This document shows, piece after piece, positions 5,472-24,085 of a stretch of 32,000 nt of DNA. A model generated the notes under the pieces. It had not been told where the DNA came from. It worked only from the letters and a program-made list of their open reading frames with translations, and made no database searches. The stretch is taken from assembly GCA_963718915.1 (NCBI GenBank), contig CAVRAI010000001.1:330001-362000 (forward strand). The letters are read 5' to 3'. Made by a program: the position numbers and the translations under genes. The stretch's first letter is position 1. Each line of letters starts with the position of its first letter. Source of the DNA: an uncultured Chloroflexia bacterium. GTDB taxonomy: Bacteria; Chloroflexota; Ktedonobacteria; Ktedonobacterales; JADMIN01.

Positions 5472-5474
5472 CCC

Positions 5475-6263: not shown

Positions 6264-6266
6264 CAG

Positions 6267-6935
6267 ATGCGCTACGTCGTGAACCGGATGACGCTGGCGG
6301 ATATCCCGCGGGTGATCGAGATCGAGAAGCTTGCCTATTCCTCTACCTGGCCAGCCAGTTCATATCGCAAGGAATTGCAGGATAACCCGTTGGCCCACTA
6401 CATTGTCGAGCGCGATACCCAGATGCCCATCCAGGTCGGGAGCGATAGCCCATCCGATTCGGGGCGGCGGCCGTTTCCGCTCTCGTTGCTGGCGCGGCCG
6501 CAACCACAACAGCCGTTAGAGATCACCAACATTGTTGGATTCGCGGGCCTCTGGCTGATGGTGGATGAGGCGCATATCACAACCATCGCCACCCATCCCG
6601 ACTACCGCCGACGCGGCCTCGGCGAGCTGCTGCTGACCTCGCTCATCGACATCGCCTATGATATCGGCGCGCGTCAGGTGACGCTGGAGGTGCGCGTCAC
6701 CAATTCCGTTGCGCAGAACCTCTACCACAAGTACGGGTTCCGCGAGCAGGGCGTCCGTCGGCGCTATTACAGTGATAATGGAGAAGACGCGCTCATCATG
6801 TGGACCGAAGATATCATGTCAAATCAGTATCGCGAGCGCTATTTCCATCTGACGCAGGCGCTGTCGGCGCGGCTGGCCGCCGAGGAGAAAGACAAGGGCA
6901 CCGACGCCACCAGTGGCGCTGCCCAACCAGCCTGA
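6267..6935 (+). CDS. rimI: ribosomal-protein-alanine N-acetyltransferase (GNAT), with an internal insertion and a C-terminal tail
   Basis: Contains 'IEIEKLAYSSTWPASSYRKEL...IATHPDYRRRGLGELLL...LEVRVTNSVAQNLYHKYGF'. It sits in the conserved position between tsaB and tsaD. Confidence 0.85.
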   Translation: MRYVVNRMTLADIPRVIEIEKLAYSSTWPASSYRKELQDNPLAHYIVERDTQMPIQVGSDSPSDSGRRPFPLSLLARPQPQQPLEITNIVGFAGLWLMVDEAHITTIATHPDYRRRGLGELLLTSLIDIAYDIGARQVTLEVRVTNSVAQNLYHKYGFREQGVRRRYYSDNGEDALIMWTEDIMSNQYRERYFHLTQALSARLAAEEKDKGTDATSGAAQPA

Positions 6936-6976
6936 ATCTGGCAGTCACACCATCGGTCATCAGGAAAGTATCTCCC

Positions 6977-8089: not shown

Positions 8090-8242
8090 CGTTTGTCGGT
8101 ACAAGTTGGCAGCGTGCTTTCAACTGTGCTCTTCGTTTCAGCACAACCACCACGTTTAAACGATCTCCGCCCCAATAATTATCACCGTCCGCTTCTCATT
8201 ATCTACCAATCCACCACTTTGTAACTCGCATCTACAGACCCC

Positions 8243-8270
8243 TTGACAAATTCTTGTGTATCTGTATACT
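8243..8270 (+). promoter_or_regulatory. candidate sigma70-type promoter of the rhs locus
   Basis: TTGACA (8243-8248), a 16-nt spacer, then TATACT (8265-8270). It sits in the AT-richer 280-bp gap between tsaD and the rhs start (RBS GAGGGAG before ATG 8372). Confidence 0.45.
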
Positions 8271-8371
8271 GGCCTCAAAATACCCCGCGATACGTACGCT
8301 AAATCTCCGCGCAATCCCGCGCGTTGACCAGGATGCTTGTAGACTTTTCAAGGAAATGAGGGAGAGCGATC

Positions 8372-11300
8372 ATGCGTGACCAGCAATCGGCACATCCACG
8401 TACCCGTCAGTCGCTGTGGCTCCGCGAGCATGCGCGCTGGGCGATGCTCCTGCTGCTGGTGCTCAGTGGGATCCTGATGCCGATCTCGCAGGATGCGTCA
8501 ATCTTCTTTCCTGTGGCCTCGGCGCACGGCCTTGGCACGCAGAGCACGAAGCCCACTCCCAACCGCTTCAATCCCCATGCGGACGCCACCTCGGTCGCGC
8601 CGCCTGCTGGTTTTGGCAAAGGGAAGACCGCCAATGCCCCCGCTGGTCCCCCGCAATCGCTGAAACGGGCTGGGAGCTTCAGCATGCAACCGGGAAGACT
8701 GGCCTTGTCCGCTGATCACGCCACGACCTTCAAGGGCAGTGACGGACGGTTGGAGATCGATGTGCCAGCGGGCGCGGTGACCGGCGACGATCTGGCAGCC
8801 GCCGGGGGATACATCAGCCTGCGCATCAGCCAGATTGCCCCGGCGTCCGGCTCCAGCGCGGGTGGCAGCGGGATCGTGTCGTTTGGCACGTATCTGGTGC
8901 AGGCAGTCGATGCCCAGGGCGTCTTGCTGCCCCACGGGTTGCGCCAACCGGCGACGCTCAAACTCCACTACGCCACGCGCGAGTCCGCCCTGGATCTTTC
9001 GCATGCCGTCGCGGTCTTCAACACGCAGTTGCCGGATGGGACGGATCCTGACCTGGCTCCCCTGACCTTCGCCGTGCAGGTGCAGCAGCCCGGCCGCCTC
9101 ACCGGAGGGAATGTCGATGTCGCCCCTCCGGGTTCAGCGCCGACGATGGCGAACAGCCATTTTGGTCCCTACAGCTCGCAGGCGGCGACGCTGGACACGG
9201 CAAGTCAATCGCTCATCGTGCCGCTCACGTTGAAAGACCCCAGTAACACCAATTCCTTCGACACCGATGCGGCGGTAGCCACCTTTGGCAAGCCCGATCC
9301 CTTCAACGTCGATCTCAATGCCGGGTCGCTCACCAGTGGCATTCCGATCGATGTGCCGAGCGGCCCTGATGGTCTCACGCCGCCAGTGACGCTTTCGTAC
9401 AGCAGCGCGGGTGTCTCGGAGCAGCACAACCCGCAGGGCGCCGCAGGGTGGGCGGGTGAAGGTTGGACCCTGGACATGGGCGCGATTTCGTGGGCGGAGC
9501 ATAACAGCAATGCCAGTTGCACCTCAGGCTGTGGCAATGGCTGGGAGGATACCTGGGAACTCTCCGACCCGTTCGGTACCTCGGTCGAACTGATCCCGCC
9601 CAATATCCAGGTCGCCACCTACTACGACGATACCGGGAACAGCATTACCGCCAGCCCGGTACGCTGGCACACGACGCCGGACAACTATGCGAAGGTCTAT
9701 TCCTATACCAGCACGCTCACACTGCCGGATGGGGCGGGGGTGCATCCGCCGTGCTTCCGGGTCTTCCTTACCAATGGCATCATGGAGGAGTTCGGCTGCA
9801 CGAGCGACTCGCTCCAGTACTACTACACGCCGGGGATGGGCGACTATATCGCCAGCTGGCATCTCGATCTGATTACCGACCCGCAGGGCAACCAGATTCA
9901 CCTGAAATACGCGAGCGACGTCGAGCAGAAGAGCGTCTCGGGCGTCAATCACCCGTACGACCGCGACACGGTCCTCAGCACCATCGAATGGGACTCACCT
10001 ACCTGCCAGAACGCCTCGACCGCCTGCGCCATCGGAGGCACCGCCCCCAACAAATGGGCGCCGCTGATGCAGGTCAGCTTCACGGCTGGGCACGCGCCCA
10101 CCCACCCAACGAACACACTCACGGGCTGCAATACCGGCACGAATCTGCGCTGCGACGATCCCCTAGATCTCTCGACCACCATCTGCAAGGCTGGCTACAC
10201 GACGAAGGGACTCCCCGCGCCTGATGTGCAGAGCACCTCTGTGCTCAACGATGTCGTCGTGCAGGTGCGCGGAAGCGCCGCGGGAAGCTGGAACTCGCTG
10301 CGCGACTACCAGTTCACCTATCAGCGCTCTGCACCCAGCCAGGTTGGCGCCGGGGAGGTCTACGACCCCGTGACGGGGATGTGCGAGTCGGTGGCAGGGT
10401 CGCTATTGCTGACCAAGCTCGTGGAAGTGGGCGACGACCTCACGACCGCGTTGCCAACCCACACCTTCGGCTACACCGCCGTGCCGCAGTACTATGAAGA
10501 TGATGTTTACCACCCCCACACCCTGCCTGGTGGCGCGACAAACTGCGGGCCATCGTTCAATACCGGGAATGGCAGCGGATGCCTGCTCTGGAACCAGAGC
10601 TTCGACGGCAACAGTTACTATCTCTCGACCGCCGACAACGGCATGGGGCTGCACCAGACCTTTAGCTGGGCCAACGCACGCAACAACACACACGGTGTCA
10701 ATGGCGGCGGCTCGAATAATGAGATACCGCTCTATTGTAATGGGTTGAGCGCGGCCGACCAGAAAGTCTACCCCTGCAACGAGGCCGACGACCAGAACTG
10801 GAGCCACGCCGTCCTCACCCAGCAGAAAGGGGATGTTGTTCGCGCCTCCACCGATGGCGACACCACGATTTCGAGCACTTCCACCTACGCCTACACCCTG
10901 ACAGCCCTGCCGAACCGGGCGTGCTCCGACTGCGTGGCGGGGATGTACTGGGGCAACCAGAACAACGGCGATTACCTTGACTACTACGACGCCAAGTTCA
11001 TGGGCTTTGCCGAGGCCGATGTCGCCAATCCCGACGGCTCCTTTGTCAAACACAAATATCTCTCGACCGAGGGGTATGGCCTCTACGACGCGACGGTGCC
11101 TTGTCTGGCGTATATCTTGCCCTGCCACGTCTCGCCGTGGTGGGATATCGGCAACGCGGGCCATGGCCACGAGTATGAGACCGATTACTATGATATCGGC
11201 GGCACGACCCTGCTCAAGAAGGAGACCGCCCAGTATCAACTGGTCTGCCCGGCGGGCGGCGTCGCGGGGTCGCCTTCGTGGAGCACGACGCTCAACGGCA

Positions 11301-12214
11301 ACCCCTACACCTATACCTGGGACGGCATGCTCGTGGCCGCGCTCGACCATGGCAATCCGGTGGCCGACTGCGATGTGCAGACGACATCGACGGATTCGAC
11401 CATGGTCAATGGCGCATCGGACCCGTTCTACGCGCCGCATAGCAGCGCCAGCTACCTCTACGACAGTGTGGGGCGCGTCACCGACCAGACCACCGGCGTG
11501 GATACCGGGCTGGAGGCGCAATACTTCGCCAATAGCAGCCTGACGGGTGATCCAGCGCTCACCCGGCTGGACGCGACCGTGAACAATAGCTGGGGCACTG
11601 GCTCGCCCTTCCCTGGCATTGGCCCGAACGGGTTCTCCGTGCGCTGGACCGGCTACGTGCAGCCGCAGTATTCGGGGACGTACACCTTCTATACCGATTC
11701 AGATGATGGGGCGCGGCTCTGGGTCAACGGGACCGAACTCGTCAACAACTGGACGAACCACGGCCTGACGGAGAACAGCGGGACCATCGCGCTCACCGCG
11801 GGCCAGCTCTACCCGATTACCTTGGAGTATTACGACTACACCAGCACCGCGACGATCCAGCTGTACTGGTCGGAGGCGAGCCAGCCGAAGCAGATCATCC
11901 CGGCGACGGCCCTCTTCACCCGCGCAGATGGCGGCGGCGGCACGGCCTACGGCAGCGTTCCCGCCGTGGTCACCCATACCGACTACATCCAGAACAATGG
12001 CCTCACCGCGACCAGCACCGGCGTGACCGGCCACTACCTGCTGACCTTCCCCGCCTACGTCTACACCCGCGACGGCGGCAACACCGTCCACTACGCCTGC
12101 GGCCAGGTCAGCTATGACGGCGCGGGGTACGCCACCGGCCAGCAGAGCAGCCTGACGCTGGGCGAGGCGATGACCGGCGACCAGTACACCAGCTGTGGCA
12201 ACGCCGGGCAATAG
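8372..12214 (+). CDS. intact 1280-codon N-terminal ORF of the rhs gene (signal anchor, SpvB/TcB-like region, PA14)
   Basis: A TM/signal anchor 'WAMLLLLVLSGILMPI' opens the ORF. An SpvB-type motif 'GIPIDVPSGPDGLTPPVTLSYSSAGVSEQHNPQGAAGWAGEGWTLDMGAISW' lies at about 9311-9490. A TcdB-mid-like 'WHLDLITDPQGNQIHLKY' lies at about 9857-9910. The ORF ends at TAG 12212-14, created by an extra c at 12209 relative to copy B. Confidence 0.85.
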   Translation: MRDQQSAHPRTRQSLWLREHARWAMLLLLVLSGILMPISQDASIFFPVASAHGLGTQSTKPTPNRFNPHADATSVAPPAGFGKGKTANAPAGPPQSLKRAGSFSMQPGRLALSADHATTFKGSDGRLEIDVPAGAVTGDDLAAAGGYISLRISQIAPASGSSAGGSGIVSFGTYLVQAVDAQGVLLPHGLRQPATLKLHYATRESALDLSHAVAVFNTQLPDGTDPDLAPLTFAVQVQQPGRLTGGNVDVAPPGSAPTMANSHFGPYSSQAATLDTASQSLIVPLTLKDPSNTNSFDTDAAVATFGKPDPFNVDLNAGSLTSGIPIDVPSGPDGLTPPVTLSYSSAGVSEQHNPQGAAGWAGEGWTLDMGAISWAEHNSNASCTSGCGNGWEDTWELSDPFGTSVELIPPNIQVATYYDDTGNSITASPVRWHTTPDNYAKVYSYTSTLTLPDGAGVHPPCFRVFLTNGIMEEFGCTSDSLQYYYTPGMGDYIASWHLDLITDPQGNQIHLKYASDVEQKSVSGVNHPYDRDTVLSTIEWDSPTCQNASTACAIGGTAPNKWAPLMQVSFTAGHAPTHPTNTLTGCNTGTNLRCDDPLDLSTTICKAGYTTKGLPAPDVQSTSVLNDVVVQVRGSAAGSWNSLRDYQFTYQRSAPSQVGAGEVYDPVTGMCESVAGSLLLTKLVEVGDDLTTALPTHTFGYTAVPQYYEDDVYHPHTLPGGATNCGPSFNTGNGSGCLLWNQSFDGNSYYLSTADNGMGLHQTFSWANARNNTHGVNGGGSNNEIPLYCNGLSAADQKVYPCNEADDQNWSHAVLTQQKGDVVRASTDGDTTISSTSTYAYTLTALPNRACSDCVAGMYWGNQNNGDYLDYYDAKFMGFAEADVANPDGSFVKHKYLSTEGYGLYDATVPCLAYILPCHVSPWWDIGNAGHGHEYETDYYDIGGTTLLKKETAQYQLVCPAGGVAGSPSWSTTLNGNPYTYTWDGMLVAALDHGNPVADCDVQTTSTDSTMVNGASDPFYAPHSSASYLYDSVGRVTDQTTGVDTGLEAQYFANSSLTGDPALTRLDATVNNSWGTGSPFPGIGPNGFSVRWTGYVQPQYSGTYTFYTDSDDGARLWVNGTELVNNWTNHGLTENSGTIALTAGQLYPITLEYYDYTSTATIQLYWSEASQPKQIIPATALFTRADGGGGTAYGSVPAVVTHTDYIQNNGLTATSTGVTGHYLLTFPAYVYTRDGGNTVHYACGQVSYDGAGYATGQQSSLTLGEAMTGDQYTSCGNAGQ
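11510..11917 (+). other. PA14 domain inside the rhs gene
   Basis: 'LEAQYFANSSLTGDPALTRLDATVNNSWGTGSPFPGIGPNGFSVRWTGYVQPQYSGTYTFYTDSDDGARLWVNGTELVNNW...LTAGQLYPITLEYYD...IQLYWS' is the canonical PA14 pattern. Confidence 0.8.
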
Positions 12215-14640
12215 CTTTGCCCTGAGCGGGCAGATCCGCAGCACCTCCACCTATGATAGCTATGGGAACGCGCAGACGACGACCGATCCCGACGCCAACG
12301 CGGGCAACACCGCGCACAAGGGCTGCACCGTCGGCAGTAGCACGTATACCACCTGCGTGACCTACGACTCGACGTTCGACGGTCCTGCCGGTCTCCAGCG
12401 CCAACGCGCTCACCCAGAGCGTCTCGCTGGGCTTCAACGCCACCTCGGACGCGACCGGTGGCTTTGGCCTCTGGCCAACCTCGGCGACCGACGCCAACGG
12501 GCAGGTCGCCACGACCACCTACGACGCGCTGGGGCGGACGCTGAGCACGACGCGCGCCGGGCGAGACGACCGGGCTGACGACCACCACGACCAGCTATAC
12601 CGTCTGGTGCAACCCGCCGACGGGGCGCGTAGACACCCTGTGTTGAGGTGGACAGCACCCAGCGGCTCGACGCCAGCAATACCGTCACCGCGCGCAGCTT
12701 CTACGACGGCTACGGGCGGCTGGTGGAGACGCGCACCGCCGCGCCCGGCGGCAACGACATCGTCCAGTATGTCGACTATGATGTCTCCGGGCGGGTCGAT
12801 CAACGCCAGTGTGCCCTACTTCGTCCCTGCCTATAGCGGCGGCCCCGGCTCAGCGGCGTTCTCCGACGCCAGATGCGACGCCAGGCGGGTACCCAGACGA
12901 CCTATGACGGGCTGGGGCGGACGCTCAGCGTGCAAGACCCGCTCGCGGCAGACGACGACCACGAGCTACCAGGTCGAGTGCGGCTGGACCGCGCCCGCCG
13001 ACACCGCCTGCTATCAGGCGATCACGGTCCACGACGCGCTGCATGCACCAGACCTACTCCCTCGTCGATGGGCTGGGGCGGGTCGATCTACAGCGAGCGG
13101 GATACCGGCAACAGCAGCGGCACCTGGGGATGGTATACGGAGACCCACTACACCTACGACGCCAATGGCAACCTGACCAAGATCTTCGTCCCCTATGATG
13201 ACCCGGCGACGACGACCTTCAGCTATGACGCCACCGGGCGCACCACCGGCATGACCGACCCCGACCGGGGGACGGAAGCGTATAGCTACGACGCCAATGG
13301 CAACGTCATCCAGACGACCGACGCGCGCGGGCAGCGAGCGGGACAATCTACGCGGGCTACGACGGGCTGAACCGCCAGGTCTGGCGCAACACCAGCAATA
13401 GCCCGACGGGCGCCTACGTCACCTACAGCTACGACAGCACCAGCGGCGGCAACTATGGCGTCGGGCGGCTGACCGGCGAGACCTTTAGCGGCGCGCTCGG
13501 CTCCGGCTCCTACAGCTACAGCTACGACCGGCGCGGCGAGACGACCAGTCTCGACCCTGACCATGGGCGGCACTGGGGGCGGCAGCTACCCGGTGGGCAC
13601 GACCTACAACGACGCCGGACAGGCGCTCATGCTGACCTACCCGAACGGCGAGACTGTCACCGCGAGCTACAGCGCGGCAGGCTGGCTCGGCAGCCTCACC
13701 CGGACGCTGAGCGGCACACCACCACGCTGCTCGGCGCGATCAGCTACACCGGCAGCGGTGGCGCGAGCGGGCAGATGACCAGCGCGCAAGTGGGGATCGT
13801 CAGCGGGAACGCTACCTACAGCTACAGCGCCAGCTTCGATACGCTGGCCCGGCCAACCGATGTCAAGACCAGCCGGATCAGCGACGGGGCGACGCTGTTT
13901 GAGGAGGCGCCGACCTACGACGCGGTGGGCAACATCACCAGCGAGACGACCACGTTGCCGACCGGGACCGATGTGCAGCAGTTCTGCTACGACGACTTCA
14001 GCCGCCTGACCTGGGCAGGGTCGACTGGGACGCCGCCCTGCACCGGGACAGCCATCACTCCTGGCACGCTGACCGCCGCCCAGTATACGCAGACCTTCAG
14101 CTACGACAACCAGGACCGGCTGACCAGCAGCCCGCTGGGCAGCTACTCCTACGACGACGCCGAATCACCTGCACGCCGCCACCTTCGTGGACATTAGCGG
14201 CACCGACGACTATTGCGCCGAGCTACGATGCCAGCGGCAACATGACTCGCCCGCGCGCCCAGCGAGAGTCATGCCCCAGCAGCAACTGAGCTACGACAAC
14301 GAGGGGCGGCTCACAGCCTGGCAGAACGCGCCGTCGTCAGCCCACGAGCACGGCGCAGTATCTCTACGATGGCGAGGGCAACCGCGTCGAGCAGCAGACG
14401 ACGAGTGGCGGGACGACCACCACGACCACCTATGTCGGCGACATCGAGCAGGTGGCGACCAGCGGCGGCACGATCCACCACCACAACGTACTACTACGCC
14501 GCTGGGCAGCGCATTGCCCTGCGGTCAACGGCACGCTCAGCGTATCTCGCCAGCGATCTCCTCGGCAGCGCGACGGTCGCCCTCGATGGCAGCGGTATCC
14601 CGATCGCCAGCCAACTTTACGCGCCGTATGGCGGAGTCCG
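12165..14640 (+). repeat. YD-shell copy A (direct repeat of 21452-23905)
   Basis: It aligns by eye nearly base-for-base with copy B, from '..ccagtacacc.gctgtggcaacgccggg' to '..gtcgccct.ga.g.cagcgg'. Offset is about 9.29 kb. Confidence 0.85.
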
Positions 14641-14842
14641 CTACAGCAACGGCACGATGCCGACCGACTATGGCTTTACCGGCCAACGGGCCGACAGCGC
14701 CACCGGGCTGGATTATTATGGCGCACGCTACTATGACCCAGCGCTGGGCCAGTTTACTTCCGCCGATACAGTCTTGGATGGGTTGAACCGCTATGGCTAC
14801 GTGGGTGGCAATCCCGTCAGCTATACCGATCCCAGTGGGCAT

Positions 14843-15647
14843 ATCCACGTCGAAAAGGATGATTGGATCGTTCTGGGCGGAGGGCCTGATTACGACGGTG
14901 TGATCGGCACTCCCAGCGTCAATGTGTGGGATGATTTCCATGTCGGTACCGATCCCCTCACGCTCACAGATGGGGATAAGCAGATTACATTCACCGATAA
15001 CGCCACCGTGACCGAAACCACCGCAGAAGGCGCGAAGACCCAGAGTGCCGATGACTGGTGGGCGCAGCAGACAGGGGTGACGACGAACGAGTTCACCGAC
15101 GAGTTCAGAGCGCCGGGGCGCGAGGCCTGGGACAGCGAGTTCACCCCGGCCAATGACGGTGATCATCGGCAATGGCGGCAATGGCGGCAATGGCGGCAAT
15201 GGCGGCAATGGCGGCAATGGCGGCAATGGCGGCGGTAGTGGGGGTAGTAGTGGTTCAGGAGGGGGCGGCAGGAACCCCGGAGCTACTGCCTCCATCAGCC
15301 AGGATGGCGCCACGACAATTGAGGGAACCTCAGGCGAGGGCGTACAGAATCCTGGATTTGATATCGGTCCACATAGGTTTGGTGGTCAATGTGCAGAAGT
15401 CATGTGTGCTTCCAAAGTCGTAAACGCCATTGAAAATGGCGAAGATGGCTGGGAGGTAGGTAAACCGGCTTACATACACGTAAACCAGTTTAGGTATCAA
15501 GGGCCGTGTGCTGGTTGTGAATATATCCTTAAGCAACTGGCATCGTACCTCGATGCGCCAGTCCAGCTATCCTACGATGGTGGGTCTAGGTTTGGGATAG
15601 TCACGCTGCCGCGATACTTGCCGGGTTTCTACCCATTCGGGGGGTAG
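14843..15647 (+). other. C-terminal toxin tip CT1: pre-toxin region + (GGN)7 linker + deaminase-like domain
   Basis: It begins right after DPSGH (14828-14842). The frame changes near 15167, from ORF 14369..15238 to ORF 15153..15647. Zinc-ligand and catalytic motifs are 'QCAEV' (CAE 15390-15398) and 'GPCAGCE' (15504-15518). GC is lower than in the shell. Confidence 0.6.
15168..15233 (+). repeat. 9-bp tandem repeat (aatggcggc x7) encoding a (GGN)n linker
   Basis: AAT recurs at 15171, 15180, 15189, 15198, 15207, 15216 and 15225 in perfect register. It reads GNGGNGG in frame 0 and RQWRQW in frame 2. Confidence 0.95.
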
Positions 15648-15884
15648 GAGGAAAAAGTAAGTGGCGAGAATTTTGGAGGTGGCGTCCAGGAGCTTGCACG
15701 ATCGGCTTTTCAAGAGATCTTTGGGCAACGGTTCATGCACGTTTTCCTGCCCCGTGCACTGGTTGCTCAGCTGATGATAAGTGAGGCACCCATGATGGGT
15801 ATATACTGTTGCCCGGAGACAGCGGAAACAGCGGAGCCGACAACACCCTGGCGAGTCCATGAGTCAAGAAAGAAGGTCAAATAA

Positions 15885-16448
15885 ATGGCGCTTGTTCAAC
15901 TTGATGGCGACGCCATGGGGTACATTCACGAGGCACTGGCACAGCCATATCCATTTGCAGAGGCAATGCGCCTCTTACCCTGGGAGCGGGGTTCGCTTTG
16001 GTCATTTGTACCCATCTCAGAGGAAGAACGGTGGTCAAACTGGGAAGCCTTCCTCCATTTCGTCCTCCAGTATCTGCATGCTGGAGGGCAACGGGCATTC
16101 GTGATGAGCCACGCGTTTCCGGGCCGACGTACTGATGCTCGTTTACTAGAAGATCCACGTCTGGGCCGTGAATGGGCGGATTGGTGTTTCTGCGGCGATG
16201 CACTATGCTTCTTTACAACCGAAATTGCGGATGTCGCCCAGATCGTGCATGTACTAGAAGATGTCCAAGCACCAGCAGCATTTGGCGTCTTGGTACGTGA
16301 CGTAGCCCTTCCCTGGCATGCTGACCTCTCGCAAAAAACACTCGATGATATGGTGTCACGCGCTGAATATGCTGTGTTGGAGATTGATGCCTACGATAAC
16401 AGGACCGCGCTCATCTGGAGTCGCACTGAGACACTTGAAGCGCAGTAG
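15885..16448 (+). CDS. candidate immunity protein for CT1 (hypothetical, 187 aa)
   Basis: This clean lower-GC ORF is the first one downstream of the toxin tip on the same strand. I recognise no family. The immunity role is positional inference. Confidence 0.5.
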   Translation: MALVQLDGDAMGYIHEALAQPYPFAEAMRLLPWERGSLWSFVPISEEERWSNWEAFLHFVLQYLHAGGQRAFVMSHAFPGRRTDARLLEDPRLGREWADWCFCGDALCFFTTEIADVAQIVHVLEDVQAPAAFGVLVRDVALPWHADLSQKTLDDMVSRAEYAVLEIDAYDNRTALIWSRTETLEAQ

Positions 16449-16563
16449 CTGACTCGACTGGGGAGTCGAATAACCGAGAGTCCGGTCTGCATAGCATAAG
16501 GCACCGGGATGGCAATTACCCCCGGTACCCTCACCAGCGCGCAATATACCCAGTCCTTCAGTT

Positions 16564-18171
16564 ATGACCCCCCTCAACCAGCTGACGAGCGGCCCCCTGG
16601 GCAGCTATGCCTACGGCGATAGCGCGCACTTGCACGCCGCCACCCAGGTCGACTCGGGCGGCAGCGCCTACACCGCCAGCTATGATGCCAGTGGCAATAT
16701 GGTCTGCCGTGCGCCCGATGGCAGTACGACCTGCACTGGTGACACAACGACCGGCCAACACCTGAGCTACGACAACGAGGGACGGCTCACCAGTTGGCAG
16801 AACGCGCCATCCTCACCTACGAGCACCGACCAGTACCTCTACGATGGCGAAGGCAACCGCGTCGAGCAGCAGACGATGAAGAGCGGCACGACCACGACGA
16901 CGGTCTATATCGGGGACATCGAATCGGTCGCGACGACCGGCGCACGACCACCACCACGACCTATTACTACGCCAATGGGCAGCGGATCGCCCTCGCGGTC
17001 AATGGCACGCTTCAGCTACCTCGCCAGCGATCTCTTGGGCAGCGCCACCGTGGCATTGAATAGCAGCGGTACACCGACCGCCAGCCAGCTCTACGCGCCC
17101 TACGGCGGCACGCGCTATAGCAATGGGACAATGCCCACCGACTATGGCTTTACCGGCCAACGGGCCGACAGCGCCACCGGGCTGGACTACTACAGCGCGC
17201 GCTATTACGACCCAACGCTGGGCCAGTTTACTTCCGCTGACACCGTGCTGGATGGGCTGAATCGCTATGGCTACGTGGGTGGCAACCCCATCAGTAACAC
17301 CGATCCCAGCGGACATGAAGATTTCGCGTTACAACGTGACAGCTTTGGAGGCGACTTATCTGGCGAGGGGAGCGGTGGCGAGTTGACGGGACTGGCGAAC
17401 GCCATCCTCCAATTGATATTTGGCACCACCGTCGCTGCCGCCGCTGTCACCAGCCACCACGCCTCCACGACAACCGCAACAACGCTGGCAGGTACCCCCG
17501 ATCCGACCATGACGTTTGCCGTCAATGGCGCGACCATTGTCGTCACCTCGACCGGCGACCTGGTGGTGACGCAGGGTGCGACGACCACTGATTATGCGGC
17601 GGGCAGCGCGGGCTGGCAGACGTGGAGCCATGCCATTGATGGCGCCTATGCCAACACCGATGTCTGGAACGCGCGGACCGCGCCCGGAGCCACCACGGGT
17701 ACAACGACGACCACCCTAACCCCGGTTCATGTGGTCGCCACCGAAGCAGGAGATGCAGGTGCAGCATCAGGCGAGGGCTCGGTTCCAGTGAACGGAAGTG
17801 GGGCTGCGGCAGCAGGTGGCGGCTCTGAGCCACCAGGAGGCGATGACCCTTGCACCTGTAGCGGGGCTAGCAGCGGAAGGCCAGCTATCAGAGTCGGTGA
17901 CCTACAACCTATTCATACGCCAGAAACAGCCGGTGTTCGGCCCGATCTTGAGGGATTAACTGACGACGAATTGCTACAATCGGTTAGCAATCCGACAAAC
18001 AACGACCCTCTCAAGATTAATACAAGAACAGGTGGTGTAATGGATGGCAATGGACGCGCCTATGAACTGCTGAGGCGGGCTGGAGACCCAAATAGTACGA
18101 TCACTCCGGATACCCGTGTGCCTTATGAACCATATGTACCGTTCACACCGTGGGATTCGGATTTATGCTGA
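16564..18171 (+). CDS. orphan Rhs module C: 3' core fragment + toxin tip CT2
   Basis: 535-aa ORF. Homology to the main core begins at about 16500 in another frame, shifted by a C6 run at 16568-16573. The core end 'RYGYVGGNPISNTDPSGH' finishes at 17316, and CT2 spans 17317-18171. A compensated frameshift pair near 16942 and 17011 garbles about 24 codons. Confidence 0.75.
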   Translation: MTPLNQLTSGPLGSYAYGDSAHLHAATQVDSGGSAYTASYDASGNMVCRAPDGSTTCTGDTTTGQHLSYDNEGRLTSWQNAPSSPTSTDQYLYDGEGNRVEQQTMKSGTTTTTVYIGDIESVATTGARPPPRPITTPMGSGSPSRSMARFSYLASDLLGSATVALNSSGTPTASQLYAPYGGTRYSNGTMPTDYGFTGQRADSATGLDYYSARYYDPTLGQFTSADTVLDGLNRYGYVGGNPISNTDPSGHEDFALQRDSFGGDLSGEGSGGELTGLANAILQLIFGTTVAAAAVTSHHASTTTATTLAGTPDPTMTFAVNGATIVVTSTGDLVVTQGATTTDYAAGSAGWQTWSHAIDGAYANTDVWNARTAPGATTGTTTTTLTPVHVVATEAGDAGAASGEGSVPVNGSGAAAAGGGSEPPGGDDPCTCSGASSGRPAIRVGDLQPIHTPETAGVRPDLEGLTDDELLQSVSNPTNNDPLKINTRTGGVMDGNGRAYELLRRAGDPNSTITPDTRVPYEPYVPFTPWDSDLC

Positions 18172-18471
18172 CATCAAGGAGTTGCTGTGATAATGGTCCC
18201 AATTTGGGGATGGCTACCCAGAATATGATCGGTCTACACATGCCTTCAAAGAAAGGTCGTAGATTAATGTCACACTGAAGAGGCTATTTTCAGGATGTAC
18301 AAAAACACCTCAATGAGGCAATATTGAGGTGGAGCATAGATGTGACACTGCGCCGTTGAGTGACCGCCACATGATGACTGCGCGGTTTCTTATCGGCAAT
18401 ATGTGGTTCGCATGGTATCGCTATGGGCGCAGAATCGTATCCTTGTGCCAGGAATGAAAGGTAGAACAATC

Positions 18472-18765
18472 ATGATACCTACAAGGCGTGTGCTACATCG
18501 TCTCCTCTACGACGCCCTCATCGAAATACGGGCCAAAGGAAATGCCAGTAACGACAAGGCGGTATTCTCGCTCGCTGATTTGTTCCACAATGTTCCAATG
18601 GACCTCGATAAACTTGATCGAGGCGAGGTATCCGTAGAAGATATCATGCACAAATTAGAGGAGCACGCTCGACGACGCGGAATCGAGGGGTGGTTGGACC
18701 TACGCCTTAAAGAAATCGTAAAGTACCATCCGGAGACCATGGAAAACAGAGACACATCACCATAA
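18472..18765 (+). CDS. candidate immunity protein for CT2 (hypothetical; start uncertain, alternatives 18403 and 18454)
   Basis: Low-GC ORF 18403..18765. ATG 18472 has AAGG about 10 nt upstream. The product 'MIPTRRVLHRLLYDALIEIRAKG...' matches no family I recognise. Confidence 0.45.
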   Translation: MIPTRRVLHRLLYDALIEIRAKGNASNDKAVFSLADLFHNVPMDLDKLDRGEVSVEDIMHKLEEHARRRGIEGWLDLRLKEIVKYHPETMENRDTSP

Positions 18766-18921
18766 GATTAGGTGGATGTCATTGCACAAGACGGGGCGTA
18801 TTAGCAACCCGCTAGTGAAGGTGCTGATCTAGCCTCACAGGTAACATCCGCTGGATACGTATCTCCCGCTTCGGGGTCCTGTGGCTTAGCATACGGTCCC
18901 AACCTACCGACCTACGACGCG

Positions 18922-20571
18922 GTGGGCAACATCACCCGCGAGACGACCACGCTGCCGACCGGGACCGATGTGCAGCAGTTCTGCTACGATGACTTCAGCC
19001 GCCTGACCTGGGCAGGCTCAACCGGGACGCCACCCTGCACGGGGACAGCCATCACGCCCGGCACGCTCACCGCCGCCCAGTATACGCAGAGCTTCAGCTA
19101 CGACAACCAGGACCGCTTGCGAACCAGTCCGCTGGGCAGCTACTCCTACGACGACCCGAATCATCTACATGCTGCCACCTTTGTGGACAGCGGAACCGAC
19201 GATTATAGCGCCGACTACGATGCCGCGGGCAACATGACCGCCCGCGCGCCCAGTGAGAGCCAGTCCCAGCAGCAACTGACCTGGGACAATGAGGGGCGGC
19301 TCACTGCCTGGCAGAACGCGCCGACGAGTCCCACCAGCCAGGCATGGTATCTCTACGATGGCGAGGGCAATCGCGTCGAGCAGGATGTCACGACCGGGGG
19401 TGGCAGCGACAGCCATACCTATTATCTGCCGGGCAACGCCGAGGAGGTGACGCCGAGTGGCAGCCTGGTCAAGTACTACAGCGCGGGCGGGCTCGCTCTC
19501 GGTGAAAACACGACGATAGATGCGTCTGGCATCTCCTACCTCGCCAGCGATGGCTTGGGCAGTGTCAGCGAGGCGCTCAACCAGACGGGGACAGCAACCG
19601 GCGCGCAACTCTATAGCCCCTATGGCAACGTGCGCTATAGCAGTGGCGCACTGCCGACCAGCAAAGGCTTCACCGGCCAGTATGCCGATGCCAGCACGGG
19701 GCTGGACTACTATAGCGCGCGCTATTACGATCCGCTCCTCGGGCAGTTCACCAGCGCCGATACGGTCATTGATGGGCCAAGCGGCCTCAATCGCTATGGA
19801 TATGTCAAGGGCAATCCCGAGACGGCGACGGATCCGAGCGGTCACATCCGGGTGGAAAAGGATGATAATTTCGGTCCAGGTGTCGTGCCAGGTGGGCCGG
19901 GCGGCCCAGGATATCCAGAAGACTACGTTGAATCCATTTATAACGCGTGGAGTCGATTCCTGGGCATGGCTCCAGGCGCGCCCATCGGTACGGTAGTCAC
20001 ACTTGGCAGGGGTGACAGTGTCCAAATCCTGCTGGAGCAGGGCACGCTCATGGTGACCTATAACTACGGCGATGGCACGGCTGCGACCTTTAACGCAACG
20101 TATGCATCCAATTGGCTACGTGGCCAGTGGTTGCAAGTGTTGTCTGAGCACTATGCAGGCAATCCGTACGACACGACGGTACATCGTCCGGGTAGGGTTG
20201 CCTTTGCTGGGATCACGTCCTACGATCGCGCCGCCAACTTTGCCAATATCTTCGGTGACCCACACTCACCTCCATCTGTAGCGCGCGGTGCTGGATGGAC
20301 TATAAACGTTGACGCAGGTGGGCGGGGTACAGCACAGATCCGTTGTATGGATTACAGCAACAGCAGATACGGCCGTGGACAAGGACCCTACCTGCGCTTC
20401 CAGACGAATACTGATCCGCTAGGGGGGCCAAATTTGAACTTCAATGGGCAAGTGGATGCCAATGATTGGCATAATCACTTCTATCTGGGAACTGGAGGTG
20501 AAGGTGATGACTTACCGTTGCAAAATGCCCTCGCCGGAACTATTCTCTACCAGTATGAGTTCGGACCGTGA
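18922..20571 (+). CDS. orphan Rhs module D: 3' core fragment + toxin tip CT3
   Basis: 549-aa uninterrupted ORF. Homology to the main core starts at about 18908, and the listed GTG is an internal Val codon of 'YDAVGNIT'. The core end 'RYGYVKGNPETATDPSGH' finishes at 19845, and CT3 spans 19846-20571. I see no convincing RBS of its own. Confidence 0.75.
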   Translation: MGNITRETTTLPTGTDVQQFCYDDFSRLTWAGSTGTPPCTGTAITPGTLTAAQYTQSFSYDNQDRLRTSPLGSYSYDDPNHLHAATFVDSGTDDYSADYDAAGNMTARAPSESQSQQQLTWDNEGRLTAWQNAPTSPTSQAWYLYDGEGNRVEQDVTTGGGSDSHTYYLPGNAEEVTPSGSLVKYYSAGGLALGENTTIDASGISYLASDGLGSVSEALNQTGTATGAQLYSPYGNVRYSSGALPTSKGFTGQYADASTGLDYYSARYYDPLLGQFTSADTVIDGPSGLNRYGYVKGNPETATDPSGHIRVEKDDNFGPGVVPGGPGGPGYPEDYVESIYNAWSRFLGMAPGAPIGTVVTLGRGDSVQILLEQGTLMVTYNYGDGTAATFNATYASNWLRGQWLQVLSEHYAGNPYDTTVHRPGRVAFAGITSYDRAANFANIFGDPHSPPSVARGAGWTINVDAGGRGTAQIRCMDYSNSRYGRGQGPYLRFQTNTDPLGGPNLNFNGQVDANDWHNHFYLGTGGEGDDLPLQNALAGTILYQYEFGP

Positions 20572-20799
20572 GATTGCAGAAGTATATTCAGAGGACCACG
20601 CCGAATCTCTAGGCCAGCATCACCTTCATTAGTATGGGCGCACAGGCAGTACAAGGCACGAGCTTGTGCAATAGGCGCTACTTTTCAGCTTACAGGATGT
20701 GCTGCTGATATCCTGCAGCGAGAGCTCGTAGTTGCAGCATAGTGGCAACACACAGATTGCTTGTACGCGAGTGACTGCGAGAATCAGCAGGAGGACTTC

Positions 20800-21312
20800 A
20801 TGAGCGGTGCAAGTCATGACAATAGTGACGACGGCGAAGACGATGAGAATCTTGAAATGTCTCTTGCAAACCTGGAGTCAGGGACTATCGAGGCACTGGA
20901 CATTGATGTGTTACATCAAACAATCACCTTTCACGTGCTAACACACTGGAGCGTAGAACCCGAACTGCATGTGGTCATTTTTGAGGATGTTGCCTCATTT
21001 TACATGATTCTGGGCTCAGACACGAAGCGCTTTGAATGGCTTCGTACAGGCCTTGTAAAAGAGAGACGAGTCGTTGGCGAGTGGACATCGGCTGGCTACT
21101 ACCCCGAAGGTGTCGGGACCGTCCGGATCCACGCCAAACCAGGCTCTTGGGAGAGTGGTTGGGTCGTACGGTACAACACGCACCCTAATTTTGCGGTTGA
21201 ATTGAGGGATGCGATGCTTCTGATAGAGGCTCGCTTGATAAGCATTGATGGTAGACCGTTTGAGGTTGGCTTCATCGAAAACGACTCACCAAATGCTCCA
21301 ACCGATGTGTAG
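20800..21312 (+). CDS. candidate immunity protein for CT3 (hypothetical, acidic N-terminus)
   Basis: ATG 20800 lies 5 nt after AGGAGG, within ORF 20761..21312. It is low-GC and is the first same-strand ORF after CT3. Confidence 0.55.
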   Translation: MSGASHDNSDDGEDDENLEMSLANLESGTIEALDIDVLHQTITFHVLTHWSVEPELHVVIFEDVASFYMILGSDTKRFEWLRTGLVKERRVVGEWTSAGYYPEGVGTVRIHAKPGSWESGWVVRYNTHPNFAVELRDAMLLIEARLISIDGRPFEVGFIENDSPNAPTDV

Positions 21313-21451
21313 TTGCGGCCTTCTGCAGTAATGAATAGCATGCAACATACAAGTGGCAATATGACCTGTTGAACGCCTCCTTTTCCACGACCTGCGCAGA
21401 CAGACTGATCCTGTTCGAGAACACAGCCACTGATACCATCGGAAACCCTAG

Positions 21452-23909
21452 CTGACCAGCGGCGGCCAGTACACCGGCTGTGGCAACGCCGGGAATAGCT
21501 TTGCCCTGAGCGGGCAGATCCGCAGCACCTCCACCTACGATAGCTATGGCAATGCGCGCACGACGACCGATCCCGACGCCAACGCGGGCAACACCGCCCA
21601 CAAGGGGTGTACCGTTGGCAGCAGCACGTATACGACGTGTGTTACCTATGACTCGACGTTTGACGTCCTGCCGGTTTCCAGCGCCAACGCGCTCAACTCA
21701 GAGCGTCTCGCTAGGGTTCAATGCGACGACGGATGCGACCGGCGGCTTTGGCCTCTGGCCGACCTCGGCGACCGACGCCAATGGGCAGGTCGCCACGACG
21801 ACCTATGACGCGCTCGGACGCACGCTGAGCACGACCGAGCCGGGCGAGACGGTTGGGCTGACGACCACCACGACCAGCTACACCGTCTGGTGTGCCGCCG
21901 CCGACGGGCGCGGAGACGCCCTGTGTTGAGGTAGACAGCAGCCAGCGGCTCGATAGCCAGCAATACCGTCACCTCGCGCAGCTTCTAGGACGGCTACGGG
22001 CGGCTGATCGAGACACGCACTGCCGCGCCCGGCGGCAACGACATCGTCCAGTACGTCGACTATGACGAGTCCGGGCGGGTCGTCAACGCCAGTGTGCCCT
22101 ACTTCGTGTCTGCCTATAGCGGCGGCCCCGGCTCGGCGGCGTTCTCGACGCCGGATGCGACGCAGCATAGCACCCAGACCACCTACGATGGGCTGGGGCG
22201 CACGCTCACCGTGGAAGACCCGCTCTCCGAGACGACGAGCGCCAGCTACCAGACCGAGTGCGGCTGGACCGCGCCCGCCGACACCGCCTGCTATCAGGCG
22301 ATCACGGTCCACGACGCGCTGATGCACCAGACCTACTCGCTCGTCGATGGGCTGGGGCGGGTCGTCTATAGCGAGCGGGATACCGGCAACAGCAGCAGCA
22401 CGTGGGGATGGTATTCGGAGACCCACTACACCTACGACGCCAGCGGCAACCTGACCAAAATCTTCGTCCCCTACGATGACCCGGCGACGACGACCTTCAG
22501 CTATGACGCCGCCGGGCGCACCACTGGGATGACCGACCCCGACCGGGGCACGGAATCGTATAGCTACGACGCCAATGGCAACGTCACGCAGACGACCGAC
22601 GCGCGGGGATCTAGTGGGACCATCTACGCGGGCTACGACGGGCTGAACCGCCAGATCTGGCGCAACACCAGCAATAGCCCGACCGGCGCCTATGTCACCT
22701 ACAGCTACGACAGCACCACCGGCGGCAACTACGGCGTCGGGCGCCTGACCGGCGAGACGTTTAGCGGCGCTGGCTCCCTCGGCTCCGGCTCCTATAGCTA
22801 TAGCTATGACCGGCGCGGCGAGACGACCGCCTCAACCCTCACCATCGGCGGCACTGGGGGCGGTAGCTACCCGGTGGGCACGACCTACAACGACGCCGGA
22901 CAGGCGCTGATGCTGACCTACCCGAACGGCGAGACCGTCACCGCGGCGCTATAGCGCCCAGGGCTGGCTCGGCAGCCTCACCCGGACGCAGGGCAGTAAG
23001 ACCACCAAGCTGCTCGACGCCATCGCCTACACCGGCAGCGGCGGCGCGAGCTGGGCAGATGACCAGCGCGCAGGTGGGCGAGTCGTCAGCGGCAACGCCA
23101 CCTACAACTACAACGCCAGCTTCGATACGCTGGCCCGGCCGACCGATGTCAAGACCAGCACGGGTCAGCGACGGGGCGACGCTGTTCGAGGAGGCGCCGA
23201 CCTACGACGCGGTCGGCAACATCACCAGTGAGACGACCACGCTGCCCACCGGCACGGATGTGCAGCAGTTCTGCTACGACGACTTCAGCCGCCTCACCTG
23301 GGCAGGGTCGACCGGGACGCCACCGTGTACCGGGACGGCGATTACTCCCGGCACGCTGACTGCCGCGCAGTATACGCAGTCCTTCAGCTACGACAACCAG
23401 GACCGGCTCACCAGCAGCCCGCTGGGTAGCTACTCCTACGACGACGCCAATCACCTACACGCCGCCACCTTCGTGGATAGCGGGACCGACGACTATAGCG
23501 CGACCTACGATGCCAGCGGCAATATGCTGACCCGCGCGCCGAGCGAGAGCCAATCACAACAAAAACTGGCCTGGGATAACGAGGGACGGCTGGTGGCGTG
23601 GCAGAACGCCCCAAGTAGTCCGAGTAGCACGGCGCAGTACCTCTACGATGGCGAGGGTAACCGCGTCGAGCAGCAGACGGTGAATAGCGGCACGACCCGA
23701 CGACGGTGTATATGGGGAGCCTAGAATCGGTCGCGACGACCGGCTCAACGACCACCACCACGACCTACTACTACGCCAATGGGCAGCGGATCGCGCTAGC
23801 GGTCAATGGCACGCTCAGCTACCTCGCCAGCGATCTGCTCGGCAGCGCCACCGTCGCCCTTGACGACAGCGGCGACGAGTTGCTCTACGCGCTCTCGTAC
23901 GACGACTGA
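21452..23909 (+). pseudogene. tip-less second copy (B) of the YD shell, without start codon, DPxGH core end or toxin
   Basis: Homology starts directly after TAG 21449-51 ('LTSGGQYTGCGNAGNSFALSGQIRSTSTYDSYGN'). It runs through ORFs 21546.., 22094..22954, 23059.. and 23706..23909, with about 8 indels and TAG 21986-88. It ends '...ATVALDDSGDELLYALSYDD*', about 230 nt short of the core end. Confidence 0.8.
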
Positions 23910-24085
23910 ACAGAAAAGCGACGCACAATGGGTGATGTGACCTACGCCACTTGTATTCTGTTCCACGCTCTCATACACTCCCATCACAGCCCCATGTGAT
24001 GTGCGTATCCGCATTGTTTCGCGCACCGCTTGCGCATGCGCAGGTATGAGATGCCTTCCAGACGAAGGTGTTGGGAGAGATGGGC

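Follow-up and report, generated by a model that had tools for sequence, protein, structure and literature searches.

The window analysed here, a stretch of 32,000 nucleotides, contains an Rhs/YD-repeat gene with a C-terminal tip that raises three questions: whether the tip has the fold of a deaminase, which branch of that superfamily it would join, and on what it would act. A first-pass annotation had read it as a polymorphic-toxin tip with a deaminase-superfamily domain of no recognised clade, and had proposed the 187-aa ORF downstream as its inhibitor. Our comparative analysis makes it probable that positions 15276-15644 encode an exchangeable Rhs tip of ~123 aa with a zinc-dependent deaminase fold of the C-terminal-hairpin (CDA-like) division, which would act by the mechanism set out below. 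The locus is organised as follows:

8372-14842, plus strand: Rhs/YD-repeat carrier gene (ORF list, frame map)
14618-14842, plus strand: Rhs-associated core domain with its DPSGH end (TIGR03696, E 4.9e-23, residues 84-158 of the ORF 14369..15238)
14843-15157, plus strand: pre-toxin, ~105 aa (same frame as DPSGH; colinear with the pre-toxin of the intact relative P0005)
15158-15170, plus strand: zone of the 1-nt frame shift joining pre-toxin to linker and toxin (P0005 HSPs, frame map)
15167-15275, plus strand: Gly/Asn and then Gly/Ser linker (TRF, translation)
15276-15647, plus strand: predicted deaminase-fold toxin domain, 123 aa plus stop (family alignment, AF2, Foldseek against the PDB, profile against the PDB, hhalign, dN/dS)
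15372-15374, plus strand: codon of the conserved His37 (family alignment)
15390-15398, plus strand: Cys43-Ala-Glu45, CAE (family alignment)
15405-15407, plus strand: codon of the extra conserved Cys48 (family alignment)
15504-15518, plus strand: Pro81-Cys82-x-x-Cys85, PCAGC (family alignment)
15648-15884, plus strand: spacer of 237 nt between toxin and immunity ORF, apparently non-coding
15885-16448, plus strand: ImmA, candidate cognate immunity protein, 187 aa (adjacency, identity, dN/dS)

Carrier gene and reading frame

The carrier gene is intact over 8372-12214, which encodes 1280 aa with a signal-peptide-like N-terminus and a PA14 insert (E 1.1e-31), and the frame map shows many frame changes between ~12.2 and 14.6 kb. 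In a tblastn comparison with the core of cassette 3, the window is out of frame and carries stops at ~14160-14540, and its Rhs core differs from the paralogous copy at 21.5-23.9 kb by ~35 single-base indels. Indel counts from the DNA alignment to locus L088 are unreliable in divergent stretches, and the intact cassette 3 also scored many; our indel evidence is limited to clear isolated indels.

The DPSGH autoproteolysis motif lies at 14828-14842, exactly where the TIGR03696 (Rhs_assc_core) match ends, and the same core ends at DPSGH in P0005 and L088. The order DPSGH, pre-toxin, linker and toxin had been described earlier as a continuous layout. All its parts are present, including the ~105 codons of pre-toxin, the Gly/Asn-Gly/Ser linker and a C-terminal domain close to the ~125 aa expected (~123-127 aa, from 15264 or 15276 to 15644), but they do not share a single reading frame, a break that had been overlooked. 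The frame of DPSGH and the pre-toxin reads the linker DNA as (RQW)7 and stops at 15236-15238, while linker and toxin use a different frame, which is open from 15081 and has its first ATG at 15153. The repeat itself, at 15167-15233, is a perfect 9-nt tandem array of CGGCAATGG x7.4 (TRF: period 9, 100% matches); the Gly/Asn linkers of relatives are shorter and imperfect. One P0005 HSP ends at 15157 and the next restarts at 15171 in a different frame. Since the intact P0005 is colinear across this junction, we place the 1-nt shift at ~15157-15171, with 15081-15235 as its widest possible bounds.

In P0005 and L088, core and tip form one uninterrupted ORF, which in L088 runs through core, DPSGH, pre-toxin, Gly/Asn linker and toxin. 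We therefore find no support for a programmed frameshift or for independent translation from the ATG at 15153; no Shine-Dalgarno-like sequence precedes this ATG. The tip of the window is out of frame with its Rhs core owing either to a faulty consensus in a repeat-rich region or to decay of a cassette that retains an intact immunity gene.

Decay would mean that the Rhs gene and its tip have been pseudogenised by real frameshifts and that the immunity ORF alone still works, as an orphan protecting against the toxins of neighbours. We regard such a dead remnant as quite possible, though it is not the reading we favour. It would explain the break between pre-toxin and toxin as well as the breaks, stops and many 1-nt indels of the core. 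It also fits the protein collection, from which ImmA was returned at 100% identity and no 100% match to the toxin ORF was returned, and the occurrence of ImmA homologues as orphans at three other loci (L090, L092, L093). On the other hand, the toxin domain is free of frameshifts and stops over 164 codons and has a dN/dS of 0.11 against its relative at locus L001, which shows that it is under purifying selection. Moreover, the breaks are mostly found in the paralogous Rhs-core segments, while the unique parts and the flanking genes that we checked are intact except for one early stop (24068-25024). This concentration also fits consensus errors in the repeats of a long-read metagenome assembly, and the closest relatives by TsaD are MAGs.

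The favoured reading, a tip that belongs to an exchangeable cassette, is consistent with the base composition: G+C is 0.63-0.67 in the Rhs core and falls to 0.53 in the tip and the immunity gene, a drop that an exchanged cassette would be expected to show. The polymorphic-toxin assignment is borne out by the relatives, which are fused either to the Rhs DPSGH motif or to PT-HINT, the latter upstream of the toxin domain in P0003 and P0008. In Ktedonobacterales-like Chloroflexota, the family serves as the toxin tip of Rhs or PT-HINT proteins, and fusion to these carriers together with pairing with immunity genes argues for a toxin rather than a salvage enzyme.

A small family with a conserved motif pair

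The CAE and PCAGC motifs had been reported from the window alone; we found both as described, with 35 residues between the Glu of CAE and the Pro of PCAGC, and conserved in homologues. In six-frame translation, the window contains the strict motif pair once, against a mean of 0.017 per locally shuffled window. By itself this rarity is suggestive; together with the conservation in homologues and the fold prediction it becomes decisive. G-x-C-[AG]-E-x-x-C, [PS]-C-x-x-C and His37 are kept in every homologue covering those columns. All six sequences that reach this column carry C43-[A/G]-E45 (CAE in four, CGE in two), with Glu45 invariant and exactly two residues past the first Cys, and C82 and C85 are invariant in 8/8, preceded by Pro81 in seven and by Ser in P0008. 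C85 is followed by E, E, E, V, E, E, D or K, never by R. Between strand 2 and the CAE helix, a loop of 20 residues carries the invariant His37 and a nearly invariant NPG (NSG in one member). The family is uniformly acidic, with a pI of 4.2-5.9 in five full-length domains and up to 6.5 in one fragment, and net charges from -9 to 0.

Seven genuine relatives of the toxin domain were found when 1.84 billion representative proteins were searched exhaustively. Another candidate from this search, P0007, was discarded as a low-complexity repeat protein, and a tblastn match on a Treponema plasmid (E 0.01) proved spurious, lying antisense to an ABC-transporter gene. A word-indexed protein search with the toxin found P0001 alone and then P0001 and P0004, and DNA-pattern scans of GTDB genomes and JGI metagenomes found no toxin relatives.

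Evidence from sequence and predicted structure for a deaminase fold

As a single sequence, the toxin domain has no match in Pfam (E <= 1), NCBIfam or the PDB (phmmer, E <= 10), and none of the family members scores above the gathering threshold of a deaminase model in Pfam or NCBIfam. Below that threshold, the highest Pfam scores, each in one member, are for PF00383 (E 0.0087) and PF14424 (E 0.12-0.21). The earlier impression that no recognised deaminase clade applies thus agrees with the absence of an assigned Pfam or NCBIfam family, and points to a clade of the C-terminal-hairpin (CDA-like) division that has not been catalogued.

Searching PDB sequences with the family profile gave E-values from 0.015 to 1.2, led by mouse CDA (E 0.015), human CDA (E 0.054) and blasticidin-S deaminase (BSD; E 0.26). 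At 0.015 or worse these values are marginal, and the alignments are in register at three places: CAE with CAE, PCxxC with PCGAC, and the C-terminal YLPG with ELLP. A comparison by hhalign with a CDA/BSD alignment reached 92.8% probability over 87 columns, its E-value being optimistic because the CDA fragments in the target had been picked for having matched the profile.

An AF2 model from an alignment of eight sequences, three of them fragments, has a pLDDT of 86.9 and a pTM of 0.83 (an earlier run with two sequences, pLDDT 44.6, was unusable). The predicted order of elements is b1-b2-loop-helix(CAE)-b3-helix(PCxxC)-b4-b5; the canonical helix 1 is absent. Both motifs are placed at helix N-termini as in deaminases (helix 44-57 for CAE, helix 83-96 for PCxxC). 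The model has the traits of the superfamily, namely [HC]-x-E, P-C-x-x-C and a five-stranded sheet packed on the two motif-bearing helices. [quoted passage not shown] The model agrees: strands 100-105 and 112-114 are predicted to be connected by a 6-residue loop with no helix between them.

The earlier proposal had named a Foldseek comparison as a check of the fold, and with the predicted model as query the best 31 PDB matches are all of the deaminase fold (E from 4.6e-4, TM ~0.45-0.60). The first is the dsDNA deaminase DddB/BaDTF3 (9k3e_B, E 4.6e-4, TM 0.53/0.60), followed by yeast CDD1, Burkholderia and Bacillus cytidine deaminases and blasticidin-S deaminase, with SsdA, DYW and DddA lower down; the named BFVD matches are dCMP/CMP deaminases.

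These results bear on whether C43, C48, C82 and C85 could form a purely structural zinc site, in which case the domain would kill in another way and its resemblance to deaminase motifs would be coincidental or vestigial. Cys48, an extra invariant cysteine outside the canonical deaminase triad, would suit such a site, as would the lack of a match to any curated deaminase HMM. However, the invariant Glu45 at its fixed distance from the first Cys, the motifs at the helix N-termini, the uniformly deaminase-fold Foldseek matches and the in-register profile alignment with CDA together render this explanation very improbable, and we retain the deaminase fold.

Relationship to known deaminase families

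DddB (Pput_2613 clade, PDB 9k3e; PMC13346905), the best structural match, is likewise ~120 aa long and sits at the C-terminus of a large polymorphic toxin whose gene also neighbours an immunity gene. Its hallmarks are His-Thr-Glu and PCxxCK, together with a helix-hairpin-helix insert before the catalytic helix and a DNA-binding surface that is basic. In contrast, Cys-[Ala/Gly]-Glu and PCxGC-[E/V/D/K] mark the new family, with Lys after CxxC in P0008 only, and its members are acidic overall. An insert of 20 residues (23-42) is also present here and is predicted to lack helices (pLDDT ~81-88). Sequence identity to DddB is 12%, and PF14427 is not matched at E <= 10.

The homotetrameric CDD/CDA enzymes and blasticidin-S deaminase are the sole families detectable by sequence profile. 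They share with the new family the three-Cys zinc site (CAE plus PCxxC), the C-terminal hairpin topology, which here is predicted, and an LP..F-like tail. The CDD/CDA signatures are C[H]AE in helix 2, PCxxCR in helix 3 and a Glu ending strand 5 (Iyer 2011 Table 1, PMC3239186). The new family has C[H]AE, whereas it lacks PCxxCR and a conserved Glu before the LP motif, as well as the arginine of CAER, the NxE ribose-binding motif as such and helix 1.

The YwqJ-like family (PF14431; Iyer et al. 2011) is another group of Rhs-associated polymorphic toxins, and the YwqJ-like traits G41-x-C43-x-E45 and His37 are invariant in the six covering sequences. However, PF14431 is unmatched by all eight members at E <= 10, only ~6 residues separate strand 3 from C82 where the YwqJ-like insert would lie, and the new family appears to keep the full C-terminal hairpin. 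The partners differ too: SUKH3/Imm6 for YwqJ; ImmA, an FGE-sulfatase-like protein or a pentapeptide-repeat protein here. DddA (SCP1.201/BaDTF1) and SsdA (BaDTF2) resemble the family in superfamily, division and use as interbacterial toxin tips with cognate immunity, and their Foldseek matches (9ky4, 9c63) are weak (probability 0.23-0.28). Compared with the [HD]xEx[KQ] of SCP1.201/DddA, the first ligand here is Cys and the residue two past Glu is M, A or Q; PF14428 is not matched.

Proposed mechanism and substrate

In the proposed mechanism, Cys43, Cys82 and Cys85 at the N-termini of the two core helices would hold a zinc ion, and Glu45 would shuttle protons so that the zinc-bound water hydrolytically deaminates the base. 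The likeliest substrate would be cytosine in a polynucleotide, with DNA as a first guess, and the loop with His37 and NPG would probably serve in substrate recognition. In an intact architecture such as that of the relatives, the Rhs shell would enclose the tip and autoproteolysis at DPSGH would free it for delivery into a competitor. A positively charged surface is how DddB binds DNA (PMC13346905); given the uniform acidity of the new family, a DNA target cannot be assumed.

The same fold could instead act on a free nucleoside, nucleotide or other small molecule, for instance depleting CTP/dCTP as a CDA-like oligomer, rather than editing nucleic acids. Homotetrameric cytidine deaminases and blasticidin-S deaminase are the only sequence-level PDB matches, and the alignments run through the C-terminal LP..F tail. 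In tetrameric CDAs, this tail closes the active site of the neighbouring subunit. The three-Cys CAE/PCxxC site is also as in CDD/CDA (Iyer 2011 Table 1), and the acidity is unusual for a DNA binder. Nevertheless, we consider a small-molecule substrate unlikely. The top structural match is a dsDNA deaminase, and the interbacterial deaminase toxins DddA, SsdA and DddB all act on DNA (PMC7901873, PMC13346905). Moreover, the CDD/CDA synapomorphies PCxxCR and Glu ending strand 5 are missing, and it is not obvious how deamination of free cytidine would be toxic. The gene following the distant member P0008 encodes a pentapeptide-repeat protein, and such proteins can mimic DNA. A polynucleotide therefore remains our preferred substrate.

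The candidate immunity protein

As the first-pass annotation had proposed, the 187-aa ORF has the features expected of a cognate immunity gene. Toxin and ImmA are adjacent in five loci (the window, L001, L003, L087 and L088), and ImmA is 71% identical to the ORF 3' of the toxin in L001 and 52% identical to that in L003. The ImmA family has 12 members. The ImmA of the window has no relative in Pfam, NCBIfam or the PDB, and its dN/dS of 0.17 shows that this gene, too, is under purifying selection. Conserved adjacency and purifying selection, both read from sequence, fit an immunity role, in which ImmA would bind and block the toxin and so protect the producer. The spacer has ~59% identity to the 236-nt spacer of L001 and is essentially unalignable with it; no promoter-like or terminator-like site was found within its 237 nt. 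In other toxin subclades, the downstream genes encode, in P0003 and P0005, an FGE-sulfatase-like protein or, in P0008, the pentapeptide-repeat protein.

Implications

A Rhs tip with its immunity gene is already a well-known theme and ordinary in kind. Editors and footprinting tools have been derived from DddA, SsdA and DddB, all of them deaminase tips of bacterial polymorphic toxins, and, to our knowledge, each new toxin-deaminase clade so far has had a different substrate preference. The clade described here is invisible to the Pfam and NCBIfam deaminase models, and annotation-based screens therefore probably miss it. Although the clade is used as a toxin, its nearest matches by sequence are housekeeping cytidine deaminases, so the CDA scaffold may have been recruited into warfare separately here. 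Its acidity and the three unrelated downstream genes are clues to an unusual target. Because the subclades pair with three unrelated putative neutralising partners, which is an indirect argument, a distinct mode of action is conceivable. The new clade is very small, and its predicted toxin deaminases are compact (~120 aa), acidic, CDA-like with three cysteines, and probably have a substrate loop of their own. As a long shot, we tentatively suggest that their target is unlike that of DddA, SsdA or DddB, be it the CTP/dCTP pool, RNA, or DNA engaged in a new way. If the target is indeed distinct, the family would provide a new killing route for a toxin or a new minimal base-editing scaffold.

Organisation and reading frames of the tip

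The elements that the first-pass annotation had assigned to this Rhs C-terminus, from DPSGH through a pre-toxin stretch of about 105 aa and a linker to a domain of about 125 aa with CAE and PCAGC motifs, were all found in the sequence where it had placed them:

ending at 14842 (+): DPSGH, closing the TIGR03696 Rhs-associated core match (E 4.9e-23)
14843-15157 (+): pre-toxin region of about 105 codons, following DPSGH
between pre-toxin region and domain (+): linker, first Gly/Asn, then Gly/Ser
3' of the linker (+): toxin domain (about 125 aa) carrying CAE (15390-15398) and PCAGC (15504-15518)

The spacing of 35 residues from the CAE Glu to the PCAGC Pro was likewise borne out. This CAE/PCxxC pair occurs only once across the six-frame translation of the window, and the strict pair had a mean of 0.017 per window in 300 locally shuffled windows; by itself it is suggestive of a deaminase and not decisive. 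The linker DNA contains a perfect 9-nt tandem repeat, CGGCAATGG x7.4 at 15167-15233, encoding (GNG)n. Because the Gly/Asn linkers of relatives are shorter and imperfect, the repeat looks like a recent slippage expansion that preserved the frame. The tip and the downstream ORF have a G+C content of 0.53, against 0.63-0.67 in the Rhs core, a drop that an exchanged cassette would be expected to show.

A contiguous product from DPSGH to the toxin, as originally proposed, is contradicted by the frame map and by alignment with the intact relative P0005, which place the parts in different reading frames. In the DPSGH frame the tandem repeat reads (RQW)7 and a stop follows at 15236-15238; linker and toxin occupy a distinct frame, open from 15081 with its first ATG at 15153. 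P0005 is colinear with the window, its match ending at 15157 in one frame and resuming at 15171 in the other. Slippage of a 9-nt repeat cannot alter the frame, and therefore the shift sits just upstream of the repeat. Rhs core, DPSGH, pre-toxin region, Gly/Asn linker and toxin form a single uninterrupted ORF in P0005 and in the Logan contig L088; the window tip is detached from its carrier by the frame break.

The Rhs core also changes frame repeatedly at about 12.2-14.6 kb. This copy 1 differs by about 35 single-base indels from an 87%-identical paralogue (copy 4) at 21.5-23.9 kb, and many isolated 1-nt indels are found across the paralogous core segments 12200-14600, 16940-17015 and 21490-23900. 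In places neighbouring indels cancel out (-1 at 14521 versus +1 at 14539, for example), and compared with the intact core of cassette 3 the segment at about 14160-14540 is frame-shifted and interrupted by stops. Frame-intact are the first 3.8 kb of the Rhs gene, the toxin tips, the immunity ORFs and the flanking housekeeping genes checked. The breaks may reflect genuine decay of the locus, or they may be consensus errors mainly confined to the paralogous repeats of a metagenome assembly; their position in paralogous core segments and the intact frames of unique parts and most flanking genes also fit the latter. The non-Rhs ORF 24068-25024 stops early: its 441-aa homologue in the related locus L007 aligns through to 25435, at only 71% identity. 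Either a further premature stop or a local frame problem beyond the Rhs repeats may be responsible.

Fold and clade of the toxin domain

Single-sequence searches with the domain gave no match in Pfam, NCBIfam or PDB. Among 5.8 billion clusters, a word-indexed search recovered a single relative, P0001 (73% identity). Scanned exhaustively with HMMER, 1.84 billion representatives gave eight matches at E <= 1e-3, one of which (P0007) was discarded as a low-complexity artefact; neither GTDB genomes nor JGI metagenomes yielded a relative when scanned for the toxin. Identity to the window domain is 33-73% among the seven genuine relatives. In the eight-sequence alignment A2, Q-[DEP]-G, N-[PS]-G, His37, G..W..G.P, G-x-C-[A/G]-E-x-x-C and [P/S]-C-x-x-C are kept by all relatives covering the columns, Cys48 is an extra invariant cysteine beyond Cys43, Cys82 and Cys85, and a C-terminal LPG..PFG tail is present in most members.

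Four lines of evidence from sequence profiles and structural models agree in supporting a deaminase fold, and with it the superfamily assignment made at first pass. Searched against PDB sequences, the A2 profile gave seven matches at E <= 10, six of them tetrameric cytidine deaminases (CDA) or blasticidin-S deaminase (BSD), with the best scores for mouse (E 0.015) and human CDA (E 0.054). These alignments cover residues ~22-120 and place CAE on CAE, PCxxC on PCGAC and YLPG on ELLP. An hhalign comparison of A2 with CDA/BSD fragments gave 92.8% probability over 87 columns, an optimistic value because the fragments were picked for having matched the A2 profile. AlphaFold2 yielded a model with pLDDT 86.9 and pTM 0.83 from the eight-sequence alignment (a two-sequence input failed, pLDDT 44.6), with predicted strands b1(7-12), b2(19-22), b3(69-75), b4(100-105) and b5(112-114), a 20-residue loop between b2 and the first helix, no helix between b4 and b5, and helices 44-57 and 83-96 that start at CAE and PCxxC, respectively. 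[quoted passage not shown] 2011, PMC3239186). In the Foldseek comparison that had been suggested for this domain, the best 31 PDB matches were all of deaminase fold, headed by the DddB/BaDTF3 dsDNA deaminase 9k3e_B (E 4.6e-4, TM 0.53/0.60) and followed by yeast CDD1, bacterial CDAs and BSD (TM ~0.45-0.55); SsdA, DYW and DddA ranked lower, with JAB-fold proteins below those. The BFVD matches bearing names are dCMP/CMP deaminases.

All family members score below the deaminase thresholds of Pfam and NCBIfam; the highest sub-threshold Pfam scores are PF00383 (E 0.0087) and PF14424 (E 0.12-0.21), each in one member. The CDD/CDA clade is defined by a three-Cys site, CAE, PCxxCR and a strand-5 Glu (Iyer et al. 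2011, PMC3239186); the toxin family has the same CAE and three-Cys site but lacks the other two. An insert before the catalytic helix is shared with Pput_2613/BaDTF3, which has HTE, whereas the toxin family has CAE and lacks PCxxCK, and the helix-hairpin-helix insert of DddB (PMC13346905) is not predicted in the model. Gx[CH]xE and the conserved His in the strand-2/helix-2 insert fit the YwqJ clade, but there is no PF14431 match, and the SCP1.201 and BURPS668_1122 motifs are failed. These results support the suspected new clade: the family fits none of those catalogued and represents an uncatalogued, very rare one, nearest to CDD/CDA by sequence and to DddB by predicted structure.

Genomic context and candidate immunity gene

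The domain lies 3' of an Rhs core in the window, P0005 and L088 and after a PT-HINT pre-toxin domain in P0003 and P0008, supporting its description as a polymorphic-toxin tip. The host is a Ktedonobacterales-like Chloroflexota, its TsaD sharing 92% identity with the TsaD of a Chloroflexia MAG and 77% with that of a Ktedonobacterales MAG. The whole 15.8-kb Rhs island (8090-23854) is flanked by tsaD and a metallophosphoesterase gene; L007 (TsaD 92% identical) has in its place, at 4650-8284, two genes for PQQ beta-propellers, one of which includes a TIR domain. The site is a variable conflict island.

Further cassettes begin at ~16560, 18907 and 21490. Two further orphan Rhs C-terminal cassettes with unrecognised tips span 16564-18171, 18403-18765, 18922-20571 and 20761-21312; a YxiG-like ORF (PF24711, E 1e-22) comes after the third tip and a 120-aa ORF without a family match after the second. 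The N-terminal part of the Rhs protein contains a PA14 carbohydrate-binding domain (11504-11905, aa 1045-1178 of ORF 8372..12214, E 1e-31), and its N-terminus a signal-peptide-like hydrophobic segment. An ORF with a TIR domain and BNR/Ycf48-like beta-propeller repeats (549-1622), which may be a defence-type gene close to the Rhs island, precedes a beta-propeller ORF (1568-2122). The 15-kb cassette array of locus L002 carries, at 3107-5304, an IS66-family transposase just upstream of the truncated toxin copy P0004, and its last element is an Rhs tip for which Pfam gives an SCP1201/DddA-like deaminase match (13212-13304).

Homologues of the 187-aa ORF 15885-16448 (ImmA) lie directly 3' of the toxin in the loci L001 (71% identity), L003 (52%), L087 and L088, which with the window make five loci known from DNA. 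In a sixth, the gene upstream of an ImmA copy encodes 376 aa. Twelve members make up the ImmA family, some of them orphans and one, on a contig of 509,910 nt, matching at 100%; searches of Pfam, NCBIfam and PDB found nothing related to it. In the comparison of the window with L001, the toxin has a dN/dS of 0.11 and ImmA one of 0.17 (dS saturated), which marks both as real genes subject to purifying selection; the 237-nt spacer separating the two can hardly be aligned. P0003, P0004 and P0005 are followed by a ~290-aa protein with a weak FGE-sulfatase-like match (E 3e-4; L002 5315-6190, L004 1320-1901, L006 1567-1923), and the most divergent member, P0008, by a pentapeptide-repeat protein (PF00805, E 3e-27; L005 1190-2188); both are possible alternative immunity proteins. 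The downstream gene thus switches with the toxin subclade, which fits cognate immunity. Of the inhibitor role proposed for ImmA, recurrent adjacency and purifying selection hold; neutralisation itself is inferred.

Proposed activity and substrate

The best-supported activity would be zinc-dependent hydrolytic deamination, with Cys43, Cys82 and Cys85 binding zinc and Glu45 acting as proton shuttle. Cleavage at DPSGH would free the tip from the Rhs shell, and ImmA would block it within the producer. We tentatively favour a polynucleotide substrate, DNA foremost, and give DNA a little under an even chance. Pentapeptide-repeat proteins are a class able to mimic DNA, and one adjoins P0008. DddB heads the structural list, and the characterised interbacterial deaminase toxins DddA, SsdA and DddB act on DNA (PMC7901873, PMC13346905). 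However, acidity is common to all family members (pI 4.2-5.9 in the full-length domains and as high as 6.5 in one fragment; net charges between -9 and 0), and the sole sequence-level relatives are small-molecule deaminases, whose C-terminal tail motif the toxin family keeps. A free nucleotide or other small molecule seems unlikely and RNA somewhat more so, the rest of our expectation going to another target or an inactive domain.

Rhs tips with immunity genes and the deaminase toxin superfamily are already well known in kind. Within them, our analysis supports placing the tip, as a domain of deaminase fold, in a very rare clade not catalogued before, and its neighbour is a credible immunity gene.
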